The notes beneath the pieces are model-generated. The model ran no database searches and had not been told where the DNA came from. It saw nothing but the letters and a program-made list of their open reading frames with translations. DNA of 64,000 nucleotides from a virus. Taxonomy: Duplodnaviria > Caudoviricetes. Shown here piece by piece: positions 1 through 21,268 of the stretch (its first letter is position 1; each line of letters starts with the position of its first letter). The stretch is from positions 1 to 64,000 of IMG/VR virus record IMGVR_UViG_3300020047_004811. The stretch is one strand, 5' to 3'. A program made the translations under genes and the position numbers.

Positions 1-343
1 AATAATCTTTTGAATTAAGTTTCCCTTATCATTACAGCTACTTACTATGTACCTAATATTGTTAGCATCCTAATAATATCACGTAGTTGTAATTAAACTA
101 TTGATATATCTAGGTTTCATTTAATTCCAATAGGTTACTATACATAGGGTTGGCATGATACTTGCTTTTCGTGCGTGTTCTTATTTTCTTTTGAGTGGGG
201 TTCACCTAATATCAATGGGTTAGCTATCTATCCCTATAGATTCAGCTAGTTATAATCTTATGATTAAAGTTGTTTCCTATTGATATTCCATTAATCGTTG
301 TGTTTACAGTGGGTTATCCTATGTGCTATGTAGTTGATTTTAT

Positions 344-373
344 TAGATATTCGTTGTATGCGCTTGTTATCAT
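344..373 (+). promoter_or_regulatory. sigma70-like promoter upstream of the early ncRNA region
   Basis: TAGATA(344-349)-N18-TATCAT(368-373) with extended -10 TG. Confidence 0.45.
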
Positions 374-404
374 TGAGTTTGGTCGGTTTTGATATTCTTG
401 TTTC

Positions 405-540
405 AAGGCGGAACACTCGAAAGAGATTGACGCTAGGTTACTTGTTCGATCTTTAGATTAAACTTGTAACCACCACTTGACGGTAAACGTGGTTGTGGTA
501 AGATGGTTGTAACAAGGCAAACAATAAAGTTTGCTTTAAC
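405..540 (+). ncRNA. candidate structured leader RNA
   Basis: CTC-GAAA-GAG hairpin 416-425, GGTTAC/GTAACC helix 436-441/466-471, further hairpins to 540; no long ORF. Confidence 0.35.
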
Positions 541-596
541 TGGAGAAACTAGAATGATTACTTTCGTTGTTATCTTAATGATTCTATGTTTTTTGT

Positions 597-878
597 GTGA
601 CTAGAATGACAGAGAAAGAACGTGCTTACCAGCGTAAACTTGAGGCGAGACTTATAGCCGAGCGTAACGCTGAAAAGTCTAAGAACGTGGTCAAAGCTGG
701 AAACATGCCTTCTCAATGGGGACGTGTTGTCCAAAACGAGCAAAGACTTATAGATAACGGTCACTACATGAAGACAAGTGAGGGGGCGAGACTTGACTAC
801 CTTCGTGAAGAGTACCGGAAACGTAAAAAATTGAATAATGGCGAAAAAACCATTGTGCGAGTGACAAAGAAAGGGTAG
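597..878 (+). CDS. basic hypothetical protein (93 aa)
   Basis: ORF track; K/R-rich; ends just before hammerhead 1. Confidence 0.6.
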   Translation: MTRMTEKERAYQRKLEARLIAERNAEKSKNVVKAGNMPSQWGRVVQNEQRLIDNGHYMKTSEGARLDYLREEYRKRKKLNNGEKTIVRVTKKG

Positions 879-887
879 AATATCAAA

Positions 888-950
888 AGGCGAAACATGG
901 GCGATAACTTCAATCATGTCTCGGGGTTAAACTCCGACTGACGAGCCTAA
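888..950 (+). ncRNA. hammerhead ribozyme HH1 (type II)
   Basis: AGGC-GAAA(892-895); stem III ACATG/CATGT; GUC(918-920); stem I TCGGGGT-TAA-ACTCCGA; CTGACGA(938-944)-GCCT; predicted cleavage after C920. Confidence 0.9.
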
Positions 951-1352
951 AGCATTGATTTGGCTGAATTAATCCGAATTATGCGATAGAATGAAACGGT
1001 TTTCTCAGAAAAAATATGCGAGCCGTAGTGCCGTGGGGGCAAATAGCACCCGATCGTAGAGGGCAAATAGTCCGGTATCATAGTGGTGGGGTTTTTACCG
1101 TAAGGTTGAAACTTACAATTAAGTGAACCGGCTGAACGTCCTTAAACCTAGCGTCCGTGCGAAACACGACTAGCTGTGAGGTCTACGATATTCACCTGAA
1201 AAACCCGCTATAAGCCGGTATATCATGGGCTGGAACATACGAAAATGGTATTGTTCCATAGGTCAGACTCTAACTCGGGAGAGAAGGGGAATGATAAGGG
1301 AAACTTAATTCAAAAGATTATTTACAGCCCCTAGGCTATATGCTTGGGGGCT
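951..1352 (+). ncRNA. large unclassified structured RNA between HH1 and HH2
   Basis: No ORF in the track; many helices: GGGCAAATAG x2 (1037,1061), GTAAG/CTTAC 1100-1116, ACCGGCT/AGCCGGT 1127-1133/1213-1219, GGGTTTTT/AAAAACCC 1089-1096/1199-1206, TGGAACA/TGTTCCA 1231-1258. Confidence 0.7.
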
Positions 1353-1356
1353 TTCC
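1326..1356 (+). terminator. 11-bp hairpin with short U tract (possible weak terminator or 3' stabiliser)
   Basis: AGCCCCTAGGC-TATAT-GCTTGGGGGCT followed by TTCCT. Confidence 0.5.
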
Positions 1357-1403
1357 TATTAGGGTGTGCGCCCTAACTGATGAGATCAAAAGATCGAAAG
1401 GAA
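1353..1403 (+). ncRNA. hammerhead ribozyme HH2 (type III)
   Basis: TTCCT-A (CUA triplet, cleavage after A1358); stem I TTAGGG-TGTGCG-CCCTAA; CTGATGA(1377-1383); stem II GATC-AAAA-GATC; GAAA-GGAA. Confidence 0.92.
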
Positions 1404-1407
1404 TCCT

Positions 1408-1599
1408 ATGAAATGGTTATTTAAAATTCAAGATAATGGTAAGGGTTTTAGAGCCTATTGGTTCTTTAATAAGTTTAAGATTTCATTTAATTCATATAAA
1501 GATTTTATGTTTACTAAAGGCAATTCAAGTATTTGGATTGATATTCCTTATGTAGAGATTAAAATTAAGCGAAATTACAAGGGTCACTTTATCTCTTAA
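1408..1599 (+). CDS. hypothetical protein
   Basis: ORF track; SD AAGGA overlaps the 3' strand of HH2 stem III. Confidence 0.65.
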   Translation: MKWLFKIQDNGKGFRAYWFFNKFKISFNSYKDFMFTKGNSSIWIDIPYVEIKIKRNYKGHFIS

Positions 1600-1701
1600 C
1601 GCCGAGGGAAATCATTCCCTTGCTTTATCATATCAATAGCTTACCCCATGACACATCAAAATCGCTAGGAATCTAGTGAACTATTTTCTTTTAGGAGAGG
1701 T

Positions 1702-2783
1702 ATGAAAGTATTCTACGGACTAATCAAGGGTACTCTATGGTATGTATCTGAAACTATGCCCGAAAAGGCATCATATATTGTTATTCATGCAGAAACTATA
1801 CAAGATGCAGAGATCAAACTGTTTGCTATAACTAACGAACATAACCCTAGGATTTATCTATGAAATTTAGATATGTATTGTTCCTAGCATTCTTTATGAC
1901 TACACTAGTGAGTGTACTAGCCGCAGCTAGAATGCCTAGTAAACAAACAATCGAGAAAGCTCTTAAGGCTGCGCCTTATTTCAGGAGATAGTTATATGAT
2001 ACCTGATACACTTAAGCAGGGTATGGTGTTTGAAAAAAATACAAGAGAAATAACAATCCTATTAATTAACGGAGATACAGCAACAATTAAAGATAGTTAC
2101 ATGTCACAGCCTTATGATTTTGATTTATCATCCTTACATCAAGGGCTTATTCATGCTAACTTCACACTTAAACTTAAGCCTTTAGATAAGGCTATGAAAG
2201 AATTAGATAAACAATTCTGCACACATAAGAATATTCGTCGGGATATGTATTTCTCGGCAGCAGTATACCTTACTTGTAAGGATTGTGGTAAGCCAATGAA
2301 TTGATTTTAGTCTCGGTCGCCGACTCTCAAAACAAAGTGCAAGGAGTGTTCTATGGCTAAGAACCGCAAGAAAATATTCCCAAAACCTCCAGTTCGCTAT
2401 CATTCCAAGCTCGCAAAAGAGCTAGGCAAATACTCAAACAAAACGGACGTAAGGGCTAATCTTATTGGTATATATTATCAGCCAATTAAAAATCAAGCCC
2501 CAGAACTTACTCAAAAACAAGAGACTCAACTCGAAAAGTTACGTGCTAACATAGCAAAGAGGGACGTATGAATGCAGTAAAAATTGTTCCACAAGTTAAG
2601 CCTTTAACTAAAGAAGAAATCCTAGCTAGACTTCATGTATTGGAAGTTAAAGCTGATGTATATTCCCGAAATGATTGGGAAGCATACAATACTCTCCTAG
2701 CTGAAATCAAAGATTTAGATATGAAGTTACTAGATATATATACAACCGAAAACATCACATGGCTTAACAAACAAAAAGCCTAA
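1702..2783 (+). other. run of five small hypothetical ORFs (1702-1863, 1860-1991, 1996-2304, 2353-2571, 2568-2783)
   Basis: SD motifs and ATGA overlaps; the first two were read manually (below track cutoff). Confidence 0.6.
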
Positions 2784-2793
2784 AAAGGAATCC

Positions 2794-3351
2794 ATGCGCT
2801 CAATTATTCTAGTATTTGTATTTCTCTGTCTAGCTGGTGGATGCGGTCGTCGTCCGGGTAAGGTAGGACTAACAGGTGCGCCCGGTACTAACGGTACTGA
2901 TGGATTGTCACTCGTTGTTAATGTGGTCGAGCTAACTACTGAAGATAGCATTGCTTGCAAACTCACTAACATCTATCAAGACACTAATAGAGACGGACTA
3001 TACTCAACCGGAGACACATACAATAATGGATTTCTAGTATGTGATGGTGCTGTGGGGGCACAAGGTGAGCAAGGTGTAGCTGGTGAGCAAGGCGAGACTG
3101 GAGAAGACGGAACTGACGGTACAAATGGAACTAATGGGTTGAACGCTGATACTACATATAGCATTGTATCAATTGTAGACCCTTGTGGTGACACTCCCGG
3201 TGTATACGATGAGGTCATCCTTAAACTTGGCAATGGTACATATATATCAAGCTTCTCAGATAATGTGCAGGGTTATAACACAAGGCTTGGGATACTTACT
3301 CACGGAACTTTTATGACTACTGACGGAACTAGCTGCGTATTTACAATCTAA
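2794..3351 (+). CDS. collagen-like repeat lipoprotein
   Basis: Hydrophobic signal with lipobox LAGGC; two Gly-X-Y tracts; Cys-containing C-terminal domain. Confidence 0.75.
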   Translation: MRSIILVFVFLCLAGGCGRRPGKVGLTGAPGTNGTDGLSLVVNVVELTTEDSIACKLTNIYQDTNRDGLYSTGDTYNNGFLVCDGAVGAQGEQGVAGEQGETGEDGTDGTNGTNGLNADTTYSIVSIVDPCGDTPGVYDEVILKLGNGTYISSFSDNVQGYNTRLGILTHGTFMTTDGTSCVFTI

Positions 3352-3403
3352 TAACCGGAGTCCTATACTGGGCGGTGTTGTCGACCACTAATCATGCGGA
3401 CAA

Positions 3404-3483
3404 AGGCGAAACATGGGCAGTAATAGAGAGATAACTCTCATGAACCCCATGTCTGTACATTATATGTACACTGATGAGCCTAA
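3404..3483 (+). ncRNA. hammerhead ribozyme HH3 (type II) with bulged-G module in stem III
   Basis: AGGC-GAAA; stem III ACATGGG/CCCATGT; GUC(3451-3453); stem I TGTACA-TTATA-TGTACA; CTGATGA(3471-3477)-GCCTAA. Confidence 0.92.
3419..3447 (+). repeat. 29-nt RNA module, copy 1 (AGUA/GAA bulged-G motif plus GAGAG/CUCUC hairpin)
   Basis: 28/29 identical to 6273-6301. Confidence 0.85.
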
Positions 3484-3496
3484 CATAAGGATATAT

Positions 3497-3718
3497 ATGT
3501 ATCTAAGACTAGCTTTTCTAGCTGCTTTAATTACTATAACTATGTCTAATCATGTTCCCGATTTATTGCCTTCCCCGACTAAAAACATAGCATTGGTAAA
3601 ATACAATGATGTTGTATATCAATGTCAAGAAATAGTAGCTACTAAGTGTGGGTATTCATTACACTGTACTGATATGTTTATTCATTGCGCTAACGATATA
3701 GTAATCGAACGCATTTAG
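3497..3718 (+). CDS. small membrane/secreted hypothetical protein
   Basis: Start reassigned to ATG3497 (SD AAGGA, downstream of HH3); hydrophobic N-terminus. Confidence 0.6.
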   Translation: MYLRLAFLAALITITMSNHVPDLLPSPTKNIALVKYNDVVYQCQEIVATKCGYSLHCTDMFIHCANDIVIERI

Positions 3719-3734
3719 TCCTGCTCGCCAAAAT
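3715..3734 (+). repeat. 20-nt intergenic motif, copy 1
   Basis: TTAGTCCTGCTCGCCAAAAT vs TTAGTCTTGCCCGCCAAAAT at 5913-5932. Confidence 0.7.
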
Positions 3735-3749
3735 ATAAATCGAGGTTGT

Positions 3750-4131
3750 ATGAGTCCGTGGAAAATAATCGACAATAGTTTTTTCCATCTAATCTATAAT
3801 TCCAAACAAGCGCATTTTAAATTCCTGTGGGCTGAGAAAATTTATTCCATAAACTTTTATACAGCGAGGTTAGTAAATGATACAATGCCCCATCATAAAG
3901 GAATCTACTATAACTGGAGTGACAAGCAACTCCAAACCCTCTCACTCAAAGAAAGAATTGCCGAGCTTAGCCGAAGAAATATTGAGCGCAAAAGAAGCCG
4001 AGCTTGATCTAATGTGGGATAAAATTCAAGAATTAAAACATACTGATAAATTTGCGGCGCAAGTCCTATATGAACGGTACAAAAGATTGGTAGGTGAAAT
4101 CCCCCCTCCAACGCCGTCTGACATTGCATAA
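3750..4131 (+). pseudogene. hypothetical protein split over two overlapping frames (3750-4007 and 3877-4131)
   Basis: Removing one A from the A4 run at 3990-3993 joins the two frames into one coiled-coil-like ORF. Confidence 0.35.
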
Positions 4132-4198
4132 GCCGTATTGTACTGGATGATAGATGCCCGGTACATCACGCCGATACAAGGAAACTTGTAACTCTAAA

Positions 4199-4332
4199 AG
4201 GCGAAATAGGTTTGCTCCCTATGACTAGGCAGGCGATAGCTTCCCGAAGGTAGGAGTAAATAAGTAGAGTTTGTCAAGTAAAAACCAAACCTCTCACCTA
4301 TCTGTGCGTTATTCGTACACTGATGAGCCTAA
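4199..4332 (+). ncRNA. hammerhead ribozyme HH4 (type II) with ~85-nt insert in stem III
   Basis: AGGC-GAAA(4203-4206); stem III ATAGGT/ACCTAT; AUC(4300-4302); stem I TGTGCG-TTATT-CGTACA; CTGATGA(4320-4326)-GCCTAA. Confidence 0.88.
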
Positions 4333-4341
4333 AGGAAACAC

Positions 4342-4602
4342 ATGAAAAAAATTAATCCTGACATCTTTCCAGCCAATGCTGCGGGCTATGATTTACATGG
4401 CGACTTGAACTATCCTACTTTCATGAAAGAACTAATGCTACGCCCTATAAAGGAAATGGATTACTATAAAGGTAAAGTTACTATATGTATCCCTCATTTC
4501 GATGAGGCTTTCTATGAGAGAATCAGTAAGTATGGTATTAAGAAAGTAAATTGGCACGGCACAGTAAGAGTTATGTCTAAAGATTTAATAGACTATGAAT
4601 AA
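4342..4602 (+). CDS. hypothetical protein
   Basis: ORF track; SD directly after HH4. Confidence 0.65.
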   Translation: MKKINPDIFPANAAGYDLHGDLNYPTFMKELMLRPIKEMDYYKGKVTICIPHFDEAFYERISKYGIKKVNWHGTVRVMSKDLIDYE

Positions 4603-4617
4603 AACAAAGGAGATTCC

Positions 4618-5901
4618 ATGTCTAAAGTAATTGCAACTGATCTCAAACCTAAAGATTTCGTAGATATAGATGCTCCTGCTATTCGAGGCTGGTGTAATGC
4701 GGCTAAGCTTAGTGGAATGATTTCTACCATTCAAGATTATAGTATAAGTGGCGTGATGCATAAATGGGTAACTCTCGTTACAGAAAAGGGTTTTCAAGCA
4801 GCATACCTACCTCTAACTCAAGAAGTAACTAAACAAGTTATGTCAGAGAAAGAGTTGGAAACTCGGGTTATCAAAACTAATATGAGATTCTTACCTAGAA
4901 CTATTCATGGGCAAGGCTCTGACCCTGAAATGTTTGTAGTGAATAAGGATGGCATTGTTATTCCATCATTTGATTTCCTACCTTCTCACAAACAAGTAAC
5001 AGTTAATCAACCATTCTGGGATGGCTTCCAAGCTGAGTTTAATATCCCCGGAGTGTCATGTCTCGACCAAACTATTGGACACTTACAAGCTGGATTATTT
5101 AATCTATATCGTGCGGCTATCAAACATAATAAAGATGCAGCCTTAACCATTAAACCAACGCTTGAAATTCCTCCTCATATGTTAACAGAGGGTAAGGATG
5201 AGCATGTTCAGTTTGGTTGTATGCCTAGTAAGAACGTATATGGTATGAAAGGAATCCAAGCTGATGGTAAGGACGTACTTGTCCGATCGGCTGGCGGACA
5301 TATTCACCTACAGCTAGACAACAAACAAAAGAAAAAAATTGAAGACTATGTTATAGCACTCGATGCAATTCTGGGAGTTGCTTGTGTATCTATGTTCGGT
5401 AATATAGATGACCCTATCCGTCGCCAATACTACGGACTAGCGGGTGAGTATCGTACTCCTAAACATGGTATGGAATACAGAACATTATCTAATGCGTGGA
5501 TGTGTCACCCGACTATTGCTTATGTAGTATTCGAGCTTGCTCGTAAGGTTTGTACGCTAGTAGACAAAGACTTATTCAAGCATTGGCAATTCGATAAGGA
5601 TGAGGTTATTTCTTGTATCAATGAATGTAATATTCCACTAGCTATTGAAATCCTACGTAGGAATGAAGAAATGTTTAGAGATATACTATATTCATTCTGT
5701 TATAGAGATGATAAGAATGTAGATGTTCTATACAATACTTTCTTAGCCGGAGCTGAGGTATTGATCGGCGACCCTAACGATCTAGTATTCAATTGGAATC
5801 TAAATGGGCAAAGAGATTGGTCTACATCATCTTCTCGTATCCACTATATGAAAGAGCGCAATCCAAACTATAATAAGGTCGCTAAGTTAGACCTTAAATA
5901 A
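4618..5901 (+). CDS. phiEco32-like COOH-NH2 ligase type 2
   Basis: Motifs GSDPEMF, DGFQAEFN, FGCMP, RSAGGHIH, YGLAGEYR, EYRTLSNAW. Confidence 0.85.
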   Translation: MSKVIATDLKPKDFVDIDAPAIRGWCNAAKLSGMISTIQDYSISGVMHKWVTLVTEKGFQAAYLPLTQEVTKQVMSEKELETRVIKTNMRFLPRTIHGQGSDPEMFVVNKDGIVIPSFDFLPSHKQVTVNQPFWDGFQAEFNIPGVSCLDQTIGHLQAGLFNLYRAAIKHNKDAALTIKPTLEIPPHMLTEGKDEHVQFGCMPSKNVYGMKGIQADGKDVLVRSAGGHIHLQLDNKQKKKIEDYVIALDAILGVACVSMFGNIDDPIRRQYYGLAGEYRTPKHGMEYRTLSNAWMCHPTIAYVVFELARKVCTLVDKDLFKHWQFDKDEVISCINECNIPLAIEILRRNEEMFRDILYSFCYRDDKNVDVLYNTFLAGAEVLIGDPNDLVFNWNLNGQRDWSTSSSRIHYMKERNPNYNKVAKLDLK

Positions 5902-5912
5902 CAAAGACAATT

Positions 5913-5947
5913 TTAGTCTTGCCCGCCAAAATCGGCTGGCTTAATTT
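5913..5947 (+). promoter_or_regulatory. 20-nt motif copy 2 overlapping a sigma70-like promoter
   Basis: TTGCCC(5919-5924)-N17-TAATTT(5942-5947). Confidence 0.45.
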
Positions 5948-5976
5948 TATGCCCATTTTATGGGCGAGGAGTATCT

Positions 5977-6264
5977 ATGTCACAGGTAAAAACTGCTTCA
6001 GGTCAATCAGAAATCAAACGTCTTGAGGAACAACTAAAAGCACTCAAGGCACAAATTCCTTCAGTTCAAAACAAGGAAATGAAGATCACATCTAAGATCG
6101 GAGAGAAGGGGACTGTAAACTTCTACGGTCTTCGTAAGTTTCCTATCTGCTTGTTTGCTTCGGAAGTTGCTAAACTTACTAAGCTCTTTAACTCCCCTGA
6201 GTTTCAAGAGTTTGTCAAGTCTAATGCTGAATCTCTCGCTAGAAAAGAAGTTAAAGCTGAATAA
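5977..6264 (+). CDS. hypothetical protein
   Basis: ORF track; SD GAGGAG. Confidence 0.7.
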   Translation: MSQVKTASGQSEIKRLEEQLKALKAQIPSVQNKEMKITSKIGEKGTVNFYGLRKFPICLFASEVAKLTKLFNSPEFQEFVKSNAESLARKEVKAE

Positions 6265-6267
6265 TTG

Positions 6268-6303
6268 TAGGTAGTAATAGAGAGGTAACTCTCATGAACC
6301 CTA
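6268..6303 (+). repeat. 29-nt RNA module, copy 2, closed by TAGG/CCTA
   Basis: AGTAATAGAGAGGTAACTCTCATGAACCC; the flanking helix differs from copy 1 but still pairs. Confidence 0.85.
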
Positions 6304-6457
6304 AAAGGCGAAGACAGTCTAGCCAAACTTTGTTAAAGGTTAAAGAATCGGCGTGGTGCTGATTCGCTGTTTAGTTCTTTCGATTTATAAATTACTCTTG
6401 GTATAGTGAACGGATAATGGGGATAGGATGCCGTATAGAGCCTCCCCGGCTATAACA

Positions 6458-6547
6458 AGGCGAAACGGCGAGGCTGGTGAGGCACCTCATAATCAAGGTT
6501 CAATTCCTTGAGCCGTTTAGTATTTATGATACTACTGATGAGCCTAA
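6458..6547 (+). ncRNA. hammerhead ribozyme HH5 (type II) with tRNA-like insert in stem III
   Basis: AGGC-GAAA; stem III ACGGC/GCCGT; GUU(6515-6517); stem I TAGTAT-TTATG-ATACTA; CTGATGA(6535-6541)-GCCTAA. Confidence 0.88.
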
Positions 6548-6563
6548 CAAAAAAGGAATTACT

Positions 6564-6779
6564 ATGCTATCTATTCGATCAAACCGTCGTCAAATTAAAG
6601 CAATCCGAGCTAATCGTATTGAGTCAAAGCTTCCCTCACCTAAGGCAAGCCGTAAACTTAATTCATTCCCTACTTATACCAGTCGCAAGCCAACAAACAA
6701 AGAGTTAGGATTGAATAAAGCAGGGAAACCATTAGCAAGAATGTCTAGGAAACTTAGGAAAGAAATAGGATTGACATGA
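6564..6779 (+). CDS. highly basic small protein
   Basis: Start reassigned to ATG6564 (SD AAGGA after HH5); R/K-rich. Confidence 0.65.
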   Translation: MLSIRSNRRQIKAIRANRIESKLPSPKASRKLNSFPTYTSRKPTNKELGLNKAGKPLARMSRKLRKEIGLT

Positions 6780-7442
6780 CACCAGTAGATACATACATGA
6801 AGCAACGTCATATCCCCAAACAATGGGATGACTTTAAACCCAAACATTACAAGTTAACTCCTCGATTTGTAATAGATACTGAAGATGAGGTTCAAGAGCC
6901 GGATGAAGTTTGTCCGTGCTGCGAAGATCGTAATAGCTCTAAGTCTGAAGCTAAGAAAGTCTTAGTCTTGTCGGGCGATAAATAGGGAAACTTTATGCAC
7001 TCACATTATCACGTTGGATGTGTATATAAACGTGGCTCGGAATTTATCTATGTCACAGAAAAAAGACCTAGACATTCTATTGGATGCGGAGAGCATTATG
7101 TGTGGCGGGTTATAGATATTAAAACTGGAAGGCTAGGTAAGGAAGGTACTGGGTTTGGCGGGGTGATATGCGAACCTATAAACTGTGAGATACAAATTAA
7201 AATCAAATTCAAAGAGGAGTCGCATGTCCAAATCGAATCCTAGAGAAACTTGTCGATATAAGTATTGTCAAACTTTGTATTCATTACATAGAATCACTAA
7301 AGGTTCTAATCTTTCTTATGAAAAATCAGATAGTAAATGGCCTGATCTAGTATTGCGTAATAAGAAAGGTAAAAGAATAGCTACCGTTATGACTTATGGG
7401 CCTTTTGGTGGTATCAATCATGACCTTAGATATGGGGAGTAA
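6776..7442 (+). other. three small hypothetical ORFs (6776-6985, 6995-7243, 7224-7442)
   Basis: ORF track; coupled starts and stops. Confidence 0.55.
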
Positions 7443-7445
7443 GCT

Positions 7446-7616
7446 ATGGATATATTTGGACAATGGATTAATGGTAGTGCCGACTGGCATTTCCTTCATC
7501 AAAGAAGAAAAGATAATAGAGTAAGGTTCAATCATTGGACAGATGATGACTGGGATTTACGATCTGAAATAACAAAACACAAATCAGTTAAATTTAAATT
7601 AACTTTGTTATACTAA
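7446..7616 (+). CDS. FxLxL micro-protein family member
   Basis: Manual translation MDIFGQW...VKFKLTLLY (56 aa). Confidence 0.65.
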   Translation: MDIFGQWINGSADWHFLHQRRKDNRVRFNHWTDDDWDLRSEITKHKSVKFKLTLLY

Positions 7617-7644
7617 GCCAACACAAAATAGGGAGGTAGGCTTT

Positions 7645-9117
7645 ATGTCTCTAAATCTTGCAATCGGACAAAATGTAAGAATCAGTTCTGATGTTATTAA
7701 AGAAGGTGCTAAGGATGATGATCTCTTAGGAGAACTAGGTGTCCCCGGATTATTCCGACATCTAACATTCGAGATTCTCAAGCTCGAAAATGATGCTACT
7801 CGTGGGGCGATTGCTATCTGTCGCATAACTAATCCTGAGATACTGAAGACTGTAATTCCGGGGGTTAAGGAAGTCAAATATGAAGGGGAGTTAACGCTTC
7901 TTGCATCTGAACTTGTCTTAGCTAATACCAAAGTCACTCTCGATTATGTTATTGAAACAGCTAAGTCTAAGGATCAGATGATTAAGGAATTGTTTGTTAT
8001 TCGTAAGGCTCTTGAAGCCCGAGGTTTAGACAAACGAAACAAAGAGATGCGAGCTAACTGGAAGGAAATTCAAATCCTTCGAGGTGAGGTTCAAGGTGCT
8101 ATGCCAGCTATTGCAGGGGATGTTACTGTATATCTCCCTAGACAGCGGGTTCGGTTTACGCTTAAACCTAATGAAGTTCCCGGCTCTGACGAAGAATCAA
8201 TTAAGAAGTTCAAGCAACTACTAACCAATAAACTGAGGGGAATAAGATCACAACGTAAGACTAAAACTCTTGAGACTAAAGTCGTATTCGGTATGATGAG
8301 TGTTCAAAAGAGTGGCGGTGTTTATCTTCAAGAACGATCCCTTCTAACAGCATACGAGGAGATGATGAAGACAACATTAGAAACAGACAAAAAACCTATT
8401 GATCCCAAGGCTAATTACGTTGGGATTGAAATTGAGTTTATCTACAGCGGTAAGTATGAGATTCTCAAGAACCTTTTGATTGCCGCTAAACTTCATAAAC
8501 ATATCACATTGAAAGGTGATGGCTCACTTCGTTCTTGTCATAACTACGCAGGAGCTGGACTAGAAATGAACATTCTCTGTAAGACTACAGAGGTTGAAGA
8601 TGTCATGAAGCGACTTGACTCTGTGTTTGCTAACCCAGAGATCGACGGCTATACCAATCGTTCATGCGGACTTCACGTTCATGTGGATGCCCGTAACCGA
8701 GACGTTAAGCTTATGTATAAGAACTTCGTTAGGGTTCAATCAATCCTTCGAGGCTCTCAACCTGTAGGTCGTATTAAGAATACTCACTGTCGTGCAAACA
8801 CAACAGATAAACTAGAAGACCTACAGTCTGGTGGTTCTGGTGGCGGGGGTAATAGATATTGGGTTGTTAACGGTATGTCCTATGACAAGCATAAGTCTAT
8901 AGAGATTCGTATCCATGAAGGTACTGTAAACTGTGAAGACATATATAACTGGGTTGCTTTCCTCGATGCAGTTGCATCACATAAGAAAGAGATTCCTAAG
9001 AATGAACTCAAGTTTGCTGAAGACCTCGTAGCTAAGTATGACATTGACATTCCAGTTAATGCCGTCGACTACGTTGACCGCCGCATTGAACGATTTAATT
9101 CATTATCAATTGCTTAA
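7645..9117 (+). CDS. putative amidoligase (Amidoligase_2-like) with N-terminal extension
   Basis: GIEIEF, DGSL, SCGLHVHVD, RYWVVN, SIEIRIHEGT motifs. Confidence 0.85.
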   Translation: MSLNLAIGQNVRISSDVIKEGAKDDDLLGELGVPGLFRHLTFEILKLENDATRGAIAICRITNPEILKTVIPGVKEVKYEGELTLLASELVLANTKVTLDYVIETAKSKDQMIKELFVIRKALEARGLDKRNKEMRANWKEIQILRGEVQGAMPAIAGDVTVYLPRQRVRFTLKPNEVPGSDEESIKKFKQLLTNKLRGIRSQRKTKTLETKVVFGMMSVQKSGGVYLQERSLLTAYEEMMKTTLETDKKPIDPKANYVGIEIEFIYSGKYEILKNLLIAAKLHKHITLKGDGSLRSCHNYAGAGLEMNILCKTTEVEDVMKRLDSVFANPEIDGYTNRSCGLHVHVDARNRDVKLMYKNFVRVQSILRGSQPVGRIKNTHCRANTTDKLEDLQSGGSGGGGNRYWVVNGMSYDKHKSIEIRIHEGTVNCEDIYNWVAFLDAVASHKKEIPKNELKFAEDLVAKYDIDIPVNAVDYVDRRIERFNSLSIA

Positions 9118-19417: not shown

Positions 19418-21268
19418 ATGAACAAGTCGAATCGTCTGTTGAGTGAAATTGTAGCTTATCGTACATATGCTAAGTATTTAGCACCACTTAATCGACGAGA
19501 GACGTTGACAGAGACGATTAATCGTAACATGATTATGCATCTTGACAAGTTTCCTAAGCTTAGTCGAGATATTATCAAGGCATACAAGCAAGTCCATGAC
19601 TTGAAGGTCATGCCATCTATGCGTTCCCTCCAATTTGGAGGAGAAGCAATCACGAGGAACAATGTTCGCCTATTTAACTGCGCCTTTTCGCATATTTCAT
19701 ATGTGCGTGTATTTGCTGAAGCTCTTTACTTGCTGCTTAGCGGTACTGGCTTTGGATTTTCTGTACAATATAGGCACATATCTCAACTTCCTGCTCTCCG
19801 TAGTCCAAAAGAAGAAGGAAAATACGTTGTCCACGATTCGATCGAAGGATGGGCAGAAGCCTTAAATAGATTAATGGAAGCATACTTCTACGGGGGTATC
19901 CGTCCACAGTTCGACTTTAGTCTTGTTCGCCCAAAAGGGTCATACCTTGTAACTACTGGTGCTAAAGCTCCGGGTCCTGAGCCTCTGCGTCTAATGCTTC
20001 AAAAAGTCGAGGCAATGCTCAAAGTAGCAATAGGACGTAAGCTCACAGACTTGGAGTGTCACGACATTATTTGTCTAGTTGCAGACTGTGTTCTAGCTGG
20101 TGGTATTCGTAGAGCAGCCCTCATTAGTCTCTTCGACCGAGATTCTAAAGCAATGTTAACTTCCAAACATGGAAACTGGTGGGAAAGATATCCACATCGA
20201 GCCCGTGCTAACAATTCTGCCGTGCTCCCTAGGGGTGAGGTAGGAAAAGATGAGTTTTTCTATGTATATGACATGTGTATTGCCTCAAATGCAGGCGAAC
20301 CCGGATTCTTCTGGACTAATGACCTAGACTGGGGGACAAACCCATGTGCTGAGATCGCATTGCAGAGTAATCAGTTCTGTAACCTCACAACCACAAATCT
20401 AACAGGGATTAAGAATGACAAAGACTTTGAAAACCGAATCTACGCAGCGGCGTTCCTTGGAACTCTCCAAGCAAGCTATACTGACTTCCCGTACCTTAGT
20501 GAGAGATGGAAAAAAGTTACTGAAGAAGAAGCGCTTATCGGCTGCAGCTTTACAGGAATTGCTGACTCAGCTTCTCTCACAGGATCGAGTCTTGCAAACG
20601 CTGCAAACCAAGTTCTCCAGATCAATGAAAAGTACGCAAGAAAACTCGGGATTAATCCTGCAGCTCGCACGACAGCAATTAAGCCTGAAGGGACTGCGTC
20701 TTGTGTGCTTGGATCGTCTAGTGGGATTCATGCAAGACACGACCAGTTCTACCTACGAAGAGTAAGGATGAACCGCGACGATGAACTAGCCAAGTACCTA
20801 ATGCGAGTGTGTCCTGAGCTTGTAGAAGCTGACCTATTCTCCCAAACCGGAGTAGTAGTTACTATCCCACAAGAGTCGCCTGAAGGAGCTGTGCTTAGAA
20901 ACAACGAGTCAGCTATTGAACTATTCGATAGAGTGAAGCTGTACTACAATAACTGGATTGTACCGGGGCATAGGTCGGGAGTGAACACACACAACGTAAG
21001 CTGTACGATTAACTACAAGCCCCATGAAGTTGAGGAGCTTAGACAGAAGCTATGGGATGATAGAACCGAGTATGCCGCGGTAAGCTTATTACCTGCCGAC
21101 GATTCAGTTTACTCACAGGCTCCGTTCGAGGGATGTGATCAGGCTACGTTTGAGAAGTATGATGCTATGGTTCAAGAGATTGACCTAGGTAAGGTACTAG
21201 AGATGGAAGATAATACTAACAGAGCAGAGGTTTTAGCGTGCCATGGAGGCACCTGTGAAATCACATAG
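19418..21268 (+). CDS. nrdJ: class II (B12-dependent) ribonucleotide reductase
   Basis: TNPCAEI, FCNL, TTAIKPEGTAS, C-terminal CHGGTCEI. Confidence 0.92.
   Translation: MNKSNRLLSEIVAYRTYAKYLAPLNRRETLTETINRNMIMHLDKFPKLSRDIIKAYKQVHDLKVMPSMRSLQFGGEAITRNNVRLFNCAFSHISYVRVFAEALYLLLSGTGFGFSVQYRHISQLPALRSPKEEGKYVVHDSIEGWAEALNRLMEAYFYGGIRPQFDFSLVRPKGSYLVTTGAKAPGPEPLRLMLQKVEAMLKVAIGRKLTDLECHDIICLVADCVLAGGIRRAALISLFDRDSKAMLTSKHGNWWERYPHRARANNSAVLPRGEVGKDEFFYVYDMCIASNAGEPGFFWTNDLDWGTNPCAEIALQSNQFCNLTTTNLTGIKNDKDFENRIYAAAFLGTLQASYTDFPYLSERWKKVTEEEALIGCSFTGIADSASLTGSSLANAANQVLQINEKYARKLGINPAARTTAIKPEGTASCVLGSSSGIHARHDQFYLRRVRMNRDDELAKYLMRVCPELVEADLFSQTGVVVTIPQESPEGAVLRNNESAIELFDRVKLYYNNWIVPGHRSGVNTHNVSCTINYKPHEVEELRQKLWDDRTEYAAVSLLPADDSVYSQAPFEGCDQATFEKYDAMVQEIDLGKVLEMEDNTNRAEVLACHGGTCEIT

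Follow-up and report, generated by a model that had tools for sequence, protein, structure and literature searches.

What do self-cleaving ribozymes do for a phage that carries several of them among its early genes? The question is raised by the left end of a Caudoviricetes genome (IMG/VR record IMGVR_UViG_3300020047_004811), where five hammerhead ribozymes, here named HH1 to HH5, were detected. The window analysed is the first 64 kb of this 87,316-bp virus contig, which is recorded as linear and with its completeness estimated as full. What the thousands of hammerheads in bacteria and phages are for has yet to be settled (PMC6765202), and the locus offers a compact test case, with five ribozymes in one presumed early operon and three layouts: a type II hammerhead before a gene, a type III hammerhead with a Shine-Dalgarno (SD) site in stem III, and two hammerheads that bracket a putative non-coding RNA. 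We consider the most likely function, with a probability of about 0.6, to be self-processing of the rightward early transcript between cistrons, giving hairpin-bounded messages. The anatomy of the array, its statistical significance and its generality in other phages were observed and are presented first; that the ribozymes cut in vivo, that the region is transcribed as one and that message stability or translation is affected are inferences.

A scanner demanding the core CUGANGA plus GAAA, an A15.1-U16.1 pair, a residue other than G at position 17, three helices and type II or type III order was run over the whole genome and returned five hammerheads, all on the plus strand and all within the first 6.6 kb (Table 1). 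Block-shuffled genomes gave a random expectation of 0.01 hammerheads of such quality per genome and 0.43 of any quality, and the motif CTGAYGAG was counted 10 times in the window compared to 3.4 expected. The invariant core C3-U4-G5-A6-N7-G8-A9 and G12-A13-A14 was present in the correct order in all five (CUGAUGA, or CUGACGA in HH1, and GAAA), as were the closing pairs A15.1-U16.1 and G10.1-C11.1, and position 17 is C in HH1, HH3 and HH4, A in HH2 and U in HH5. Stems I, II and III were assigned 6-7, 4 and 5-7 bp by the scanner, all five elements form valid circular permutations, and unconstrained minimum free energy (MFE) folding recovered the three-way junction for HH1, HH2 and HH3 and nearly did so for HH5. 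A covariance model (R1) was built solely from 16 type II hammerheads of unrelated viral contigs, a training set with compensatory changes at 10 of its 15 base pairs. R1 scored HH1 at 48.6 bits (E 2.6e-11), HH3 and HH5 at 45.9 bits each and HH4 at 27.9 bits, with E values on the ribozymes reaching 1e-10 to 1e-11 and no other match in the window at E < 1. On HH4 the model joined the 3' half to a non-consensus AGGCGAUA at 4231, the consensus solution being AGGCGAAA at 4199 with a 6-bp stem III. The type III HH2 gave only a partial alignment (14.8 bits), and the fifth R1 match placed the hairpin at 1326-1352 in the position of stem III. Membership of the five elements in the hammerhead class is thus well supported by sequence and structure, with cleavage itself predicted. 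Two further candidates were discarded: a weak minus-strand scanner match at 51389-51151 (stems of 4/3/4 bp) as chance, and AGGCGAAG at 6306 as a degenerate sixth hammerhead (8.9 bits, E 3.2, without stem III).

Table 1. Features of the early region, with positions in the window.
Feature	Position	Strand	Remarks
Candidate sigma-70-type early promoters	340-505	+	e.g. TTGACG-16-TAAGAT with TG at 477-504; consensus match only, not above chance
HH1, type II hammerhead	888-948	+	predicted cut after C920; scanner, MFE fold, R1
GC-rich 11-bp hairpin	1326-1352	+	directly 5' of HH2 cut; terminator-like
HH2, type III hammerhead	1353-1403	+	predicted cut after A1358; scanner, MFE fold
63-aa open reading frame after HH2	1408-1599	+	SD AAGGA 1398-1402, inside HH2; in-frame codon score 0.46
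HH3, type II hammerhead	3404-3481	+	predicted cut after C3453; 78 nt
73-aa open reading frame after HH3	3497-3718	+	SD AAGGA 3487-3491
HH4, type II hammerhead	4199-4330	+	predicted cut after C4302; 132 nt
86-aa open reading frame after HH4	4342-4602	+	SD AAGGA 4332-4336; in-frame codon score 0.38
phiEco32-like COOH-NH2 ligase gene	4618-5901	+	phrog_3815 E 6.8e-32; PF14395 E 8.9e-12
HH5, type II hammerhead	6458-6545	+	predicted cut after U6517; 88 nt
71-aa open reading frame after HH5	6564-6779	+	SD AAGGA 6553-6557; in-frame codon score 0.24

A preliminary description of this DNA had stated that four of the five ribozymes adjoin AAGGA and a start codon and that cleavage would leave leaders of 39-49 nt. 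Direct reading of the coordinates confirmed the adjacency, with HH2, HH3, HH4 and HH5 ending 4, 15, 11 and 18 nt before the ATGs at 1408, 3497, 4342 and 6564, and the leaders from predicted cut site to ATG measured 49, 43, 39 and 46 nt, in agreement with the range given. The SD starts 0-7 nt past the ribozyme end, that of HH2 being internal to the ribozyme. An AAGGA or GGAG site precedes every gene of the region, so the SD itself is unremarkable and the position of the ribozyme alone is notable. HH3, HH4 and HH5 lie 52, 67 and 193 nt from the upstream stop compared to 15, 11 and 18 nt from the next start (upstream-stop gaps overall 10-193 nt), and the joint chance of these three lying so near the start under uniform placement in the spacer is approximately 0.003. 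The four adjacencies are not fully independent, since the ribozymes are partly paralogous: blocks of 19-32 nt are shared between HH1 and HH3 (22 nt, 91%), between HH3 and HH4 (32 nt, 88%) and among HH3, HH4 and HH5 (19 nt, 84-95%). The leaders within this phage show identities of 0.57-0.80, the highest being HH3 compared to HH5 (80%).

Codon usage backs all four downstream open reading frames (ORFs), with 0.13-0.46 bits per codon in frame and negative values out of frame, as in the phage's long genes; no function or family was found for their products (63, 73, 86 and 71 aa) in PHROGs or Pfam. In-frame alternative starts of two of these ORFs sit within a ribozyme, namely ATG 3413 of ORF 3497-3718 in HH3, which cleavage would sever from its reading frame, and GTG 6477 of ORF 6564-6779 in HH5. 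HH1 begins 10 nt past the stop of gene 606-878 and is followed by no credible ORF, the codon usage of ORF 1016-1126 being non-coding (-0.02).

The same layout was found across other viral hammerheads. A structural pattern scan of IMG/VR yielded at least 120 loci, in which the scanner then identified 182 distinct type II hammerheads at 103 loci, with two or more at 33 of these loci and three or more at 16. The medians of the 182 quantify the arrangement as a stop codon, 3 nt, a ribozyme of 56 nt, 24 nt and an SD-preceded start, and an SD with a start fell within 35 nt for 74% of them. In a smaller earlier sample, an SD and start lay within 60 nt in 17 of 18 cases compared to 14% of random positions. 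For type II hammerheads of phages, a position directly before an SD is the norm. Usually the ribozyme occupies the whole inter-cistron spacer and leaves no room for a promoter, which favours polycistronic cutting over the trimming of promoter-derived leaders. In size, three of the present ribozymes are unusual, as just 5 of the 182 exceed 75 nt compared to the 78, 132 and 88 nt of HH3, HH4 and HH5. Among roughly 200 viral loci with hammerheads, none was related to this genome.

Proteins encoded downstream of hammerheads within one contig were similar in 0 of 184 pairs and were mostly the products of ORFan genes (44 loci), and leaders at least 80% identical stood ahead of unrelated proteins in 16 pairs from 10 loci. 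Near-identical leaders before unrelated genes lend some real support to the idea of a standardised leader as a general phage design. At three loci (L297:2098-3385, L243:6876-7496 and L303:2215-3230) three to five successive unrelated small genes each stood behind a near-identical type II hammerhead and an identical tail carrying the ribosome-binding site (RBS), and at L243 and L303 loop I and the tail clearly form a pseudoknot. Together, the quantified layout and the shared leaders make the idea of an insulator or processing cassette directly testable. If true, it would provide natural parts for synthetic operon design and would explain type II as the permutation favoured by phages. A scan for the 14-mer ACTGATGAGCCTAA gave matches that were mostly chance. 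A scan of type III hammerheads for GAAAGGA plus ATG gave approximately 118 pattern matches, likewise mostly chance, with two true parallels to HH2 (L287 and L329).

Cutting between cistrons, the function that we favour, would proceed as follows. Rightward transcription driven by the candidate promoters of Table 1 would cross all five ribozymes, and cuts at 920, 1358, 3453, 4302 and 6517 would split the RNA into six units, namely a message with one gene that ends at 920, an RNA of 438 nt without an ORF (921-1358), a seven-gene message (1359-3453), a message of two or three genes (3454-4302), the ligase message (4303-6517) and a continuing message from 6518 onward. The earlier claim that one such message leads into the ligase gene stood for HH4, as the ligase gene lies on the HH4-to-HH5 fragment and begins 16 nt beyond ORF 4342-4602. 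The type II permutation would divide the ribozyme in such a way that each product retains a hairpin. The downstream RNA would start with a 5'-OH flush with stem I, without overhang, followed by 22-29 unpaired nucleotides (the core strand CUGAUGAG, CCUAA and the SD) and then the AUG, and the upstream RNA would close with the hairpin of stem III, a single overhanging nucleotide and a 2',3'-cyclic phosphate. Separation of the halves is expected, because they are joined solely by the 4-bp stem II (-4.2 kcal/mol). In HH2 the 3' strand of stem III (A1399-A1403) holds the SD core GGA of gene 1408-1599, with G1400, G1401 and A1402 paired to C1356, C1355 and U1354 in a 5-bp duplex of about -4.9 kcal/mol, and cleavage should release this SD; the GC-rich hairpin directly upstream would then cap the 3' end of the upstream fragment. 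The likely outcome would be units with defined ends, in which translation start and decay are independent of neighbouring cistrons and host RNases.

The stem III domains of HH3 (-15.5 kcal/mol, z -4.3), HH4 (about 97 nt, Y-shaped, -23.9 kcal/mol) and HH5 (a two-hairpin insert, -20.1 kcal/mol, z -2.4) are strong, unlike the weak stem I hairpins, and unusually large for viral type II hammerheads. It is thus at the 3' ends left on the upstream fragments that the phage invests more conspicuously, an aspect absent from the preliminary description. HH1 has a weak stem III (-5.2 kcal/mol). One hairpin of the HH5 insert (6466-6515) consists of a 5-bp stem and a 7-nt UUCAAUU loop, resembles a tRNA T-arm and is stacked on the 5-bp stem III; once cleaved, it would end up at an RNA 3' end. 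The insert was considered as a tRNA gene and rejected, as ARAGORN called no tRNA. A 32-nt module in stem III of HH3 (3416-3447) recurs with 94% identity at 6270-6301, free-standing just past the stop of gene 5977-6264. In both copies a closing stem, different in each, leads through an internal loop to a 5-bp hairpin capped by AUAA or GUAA, and the module may be a protein-binding or processing element.

Several results weigh against cutting between cistrons. No Rfam hammerhead model reached its gathering threshold anywhere in the window, and a permissive search of 1-9000 gave Hammerhead_3 on part of HH3 alone (21.5 bits) and no match to twister, pistol or hatchet. Long inserts in stem III, together with narrow seed alignments, are the likely cause of this failure. 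By inspection, loop I UUA(U) could pair with the UAA/AUAA tail over 3-4 bp at most, and no tertiary contact of the kind required for fast cleavage was evident. Stem I and a 5'-OH would stand at the start of each leader, as proposed earlier; the hairpins formed by stem I are weak, at -2.9 to -7.7 kcal/mol (HH5 -2.9). The predicted unpaired probability of SD to AUG was 0.46-0.77 in the cleaved RNA compared to 0.34-0.78 in precursors that carry a further 0-400 nt on the upstream side; the predicted gain in accessibility is modest, noisy and inconsistent, and was given little weight. Co-transcription of the whole 6.6 kb is an assumption, and terminator-like hairpins lie at 1326-1352, 1603-1622 and 6345-6365. 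Finally, hammerheads are absent from most of the distant relatives with the ligase (none in L124 or L005, one in L127), which indicates that the elements are dispensable and sporadic.

The four gene-proximal ribozymes had originally been interpreted as natural RiboJ-like insulators, in which a hairpin-capped 5'-OH evades 5'-monophosphate-dependent RNase E, stabilising and standardising early mRNAs whatever the promoter. The interpretation is partly supported overall, and as the function of the array we regard it as unlikely. RiboJ consists of the sTRSV type III hammerhead and a 23-nt hairpin between promoter and RBS, its defining features being a position behind a promoter and the extra hairpin beside the RBS (PMC6206723). 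The likeness lies in a hammerhead immediately 5' of the RBS and in a defined 5' end with hairpin and 5'-OH, predicted here. The reading is favoured by leaders alike in length and design (39-49 nt; 80% identity for HH3/HH5), by a 5' end paired in stem I from the first nucleotide past the cut, by the near-identical hammerhead-plus-RBS leaders before unrelated genes in other phages, and by the higher mRNA and protein levels that RiboJ brings about in E. coli, for which its terminal hairpin may be responsible (PMC6206723). However, the cleaved leaders fold without a RiboJ-type hairpin between ribozyme and SD, where 0-7 nt leave no room for one; four of the five ribozymes are type II, leaving stem I and one core strand on the mRNA; and the caps are weak, above all in HH5. 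The sequences upstream of the ribozymes are coding, so that a cistron takes the place of a demonstrated promoter. Promoter-like sites in the region numbered 22 compared to 24.8 expected, a count at chance level (a 10/12 match lies at 3340-3369, upstream of HH3), and in other phages the ribozyme lies tight against the upstream stop with no room for a promoter. The E. coli and RNase E basis of the argument is unsupported: no host could be inferred, primase similarities were weak and mostly to Bacillus phages, and blastn of 1-8000 found no match among 50,697 phage records. The 5'-OH made by the glmS ribozyme of B. subtilis is the entry site of RNase J1 for decay (PMC3997798), so that the 5'-OH argument, which holds for RNase E organisms specifically, does not transfer to Bacillus. 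Like the present elements, glmS is a bacterial 5'-leader ribozyme that leaves a 5'-OH on the coding fragment, but it is metabolite-dependent, its 5' end lacks a hairpin cap, and its 5'-OH triggers RNase J1 decay, the opposite of the stabilisation proposed here (PMC3997798).

The conspicuous stem III domains raise the further possibility that 3'-end formation is the main selected function, with a stable stem III and cyclic phosphate blocking 3' exonucleases and the closeness to the SD a by-product of tight packing. We hold this to be a minority possibility, consistent with the strength (-15.5 to -24 kcal/mol) and unusual enlargement (78, 132 and 88 nt) of the stem III domains, with the separate 11-bp GC-rich hairpin directly 5' of the cut in the type III HH2, with the median of 3 nt between upstream stop and stem III across phages, and with the lack of any downstream gene at HH1. 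The ribozymes here nevertheless hug the downstream start and not the upstream stop (HH3-HH5 upstream gaps 52, 67 and 193 nt), the stem III of HH1 is weak at -5.2 kcal/mol, and the explanation is compatible with cistron cutting and not exclusive of it. The hammerhead-plus-RBS units could also be boundaries of mobile or recombinogenic modules, kept for early-gene shuffling and not for expression tuning, for which the promoter-stem-loop cassettes of T4-type phages are the comparison. This would fit the near-identical 19-32 nt blocks common to the ribozymes, their sporadic presence among relatives, the always unrelated and mostly ORFan genes after ribozymes at 44 other loci (leaders at least 80% identical at 10 loci) and the report that flanked genes vary (PMC3088659), yet it appears improbable as all five catalytic cores are flawless and their stems compensated (e.g. 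stem I A-U to G-C in HH3 compared to HH4), which implies selection on cleavage itself; moreover, no recombination junctions were observed, as close relatives for comparison were not found. That the motifs arose by chance or are decayed remnants of ribozymes without activity is scarcely credible. The subthreshold Rfam models and the lack of a clear tertiary contact would be in keeping with it, but five full matches were found compared to 0.01 expected, R1 E values reach 1e-10 to 1e-11, and all five lie on the coding strand, in intergenic positions, within 6.6 kb. For HH2 only, the RBS might be activated by cleavage, the folded ribozyme masking the SD and release of its 5-bp partner unmasking it. 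The pairing of G1400, G1401 and A1402 in the ribozyme fold, the duplex of just -4.9 kcal/mol after cleavage, the predicted SD-AUG accessibility (0.66 cleaved compared to 0.34-0.43 with upstream context) and the same layout in the type III hammerheads of L287 and L329 argue for this idea, which we nonetheless treat as doubtful: the ribosome readily invades a 5-bp stem, the clear parallels are two among approximately 118 mostly chance matches, and GAAAGGA may be plain core GAAA followed by an ordinary SD. A wider and more speculative proposal is that phages widely use a portable hammerhead-RBS cassette, giving each early gene the same self-trimmed leader and its upstream neighbour a ribozyme-made 3' cap, with expression independent of host RNases and neighbours. 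Here the cassette would be elaborated with enlarged stem III 3'-end modules (one tRNA-like), a cleavage-unmasked SD at HH2 and a ribozyme-excised non-coding RNA.

The locus is a clear instance of an arrangement already described in phages in 2011 and not a new kind of system. Natural type II hammerheads were described by Perreault et al. (2011), who reported single genes or short gene blocks of varying identity flanked by multiple hammerheads in prophages, cleavage of phage hammerheads in vitro and in E. coli, and a proposed role in processing long phage transcripts (PMC3088659). An early-gene hammerhead of the haloviruses HF1/HF2 lies 13 nt before the start codon, and a 5' end that matches it has been mapped (PMC3088659). 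In Desulfovibrio, type II hammerheads close to phage-like genes cleave in vivo (PMC8782182), and a 2019 review suggested that processing may give transcripts of differing stability or translation efficiency, its purpose still to be defined (PMC6765202). Shared with the clusters of Perreault et al. are the ribozyme class, the permutations, several copies within a few kilobases on the coding strand between small varied genes, and the proposed function, in which transcripts are cut to gene- or operon-length mRNAs. Here, in contrast, three of the four copies of type II have a greatly enlarged stem III (ribozymes of 78-132 nt compared to a median of 56 nt), the pseudoknot of loop I and 3' tail typical of type II is not evident, HH2 has its SD within stem III, two of the ribozymes enclose an RNA of 438 nt that lacks an ORF, and the phage is otherwise unrelated to catalogued phages. 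A further comparison is offered by phage T7, the early mRNA of which is processed by RNase III. The present phage would share with it several inter-cistron cuts in a host-transcribed early region at the left genome end and upstream products with a protective 3' hairpin. The RNA of the present phage would cut itself instead of relying on a host enzyme, and its ends would be 5'-OH and 2',3'-cyclic phosphate compared to the 5'-phosphate and 3'-OH of T7.

Relatives were reached through the ligase protein (IMG/VR, metagenomes), all at 40-47% identity and with no conserved early ORFs, and orthologous ribozymes are therefore not comparable. In L127, the ligase of which is 45% identical, a type II hammerhead at 34-102 is followed 22 nt further by an ATG with AGGAG, and its stem I arms (UUAGGG/CCCUAA) are those of HH2. 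The 4-kb contig L004 (IMGVR_UViG_3300020049_012058) matches the present genome at 98-100% identity in the pieces 4296-5640, 3964-4067 and 2508-1474 (inverted), and its first base lies 7 nt ahead of the HH4 cut site. It is probably an amplification or assembly chimera and is uninformative as a relative.

Other features of the early region accompany the array. The fragment between the HH1 and HH2 cuts (921-1358) contains no credible ORF, would carry a 5'-OH and a 2',3'-cyclic phosphate, and is a possible non-coding RNA excised by ribozymes. The segments 1-33 and 1290-1322 form a perfect inverted repeat of 33 nt, its left arm being the very start of the contig, which may reflect an assembly that broke at a repeat or else an invertible or structural element; beyond it no repeat was found between the genome ends, and the orientation of 34-1289, HH1 included, rests on assembly. 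The sequence TTTAGTCYYG..CGCC occurs at 2307, 3715 and 5913 (also at 19917), right after the stops of three early genes and 35-64 nt before the next start, and is a second type of intergenic punctuation, perhaps a phage-specific promoter or a processing site. A hydrophobic mini-ORF of 16 codons (MITFVVILMILCFLCD) with a GGAG SD lies at 555-605, between the candidate promoters and the first early gene and directly ahead of the latter. The early gene at 2794-3351 encodes a 185-aa protein with a signal peptide, a lipobox-like N-terminus and collagen-like repeats (PF01391, E 6.6e-7), which may be a surface or exclusion lipoprotein.

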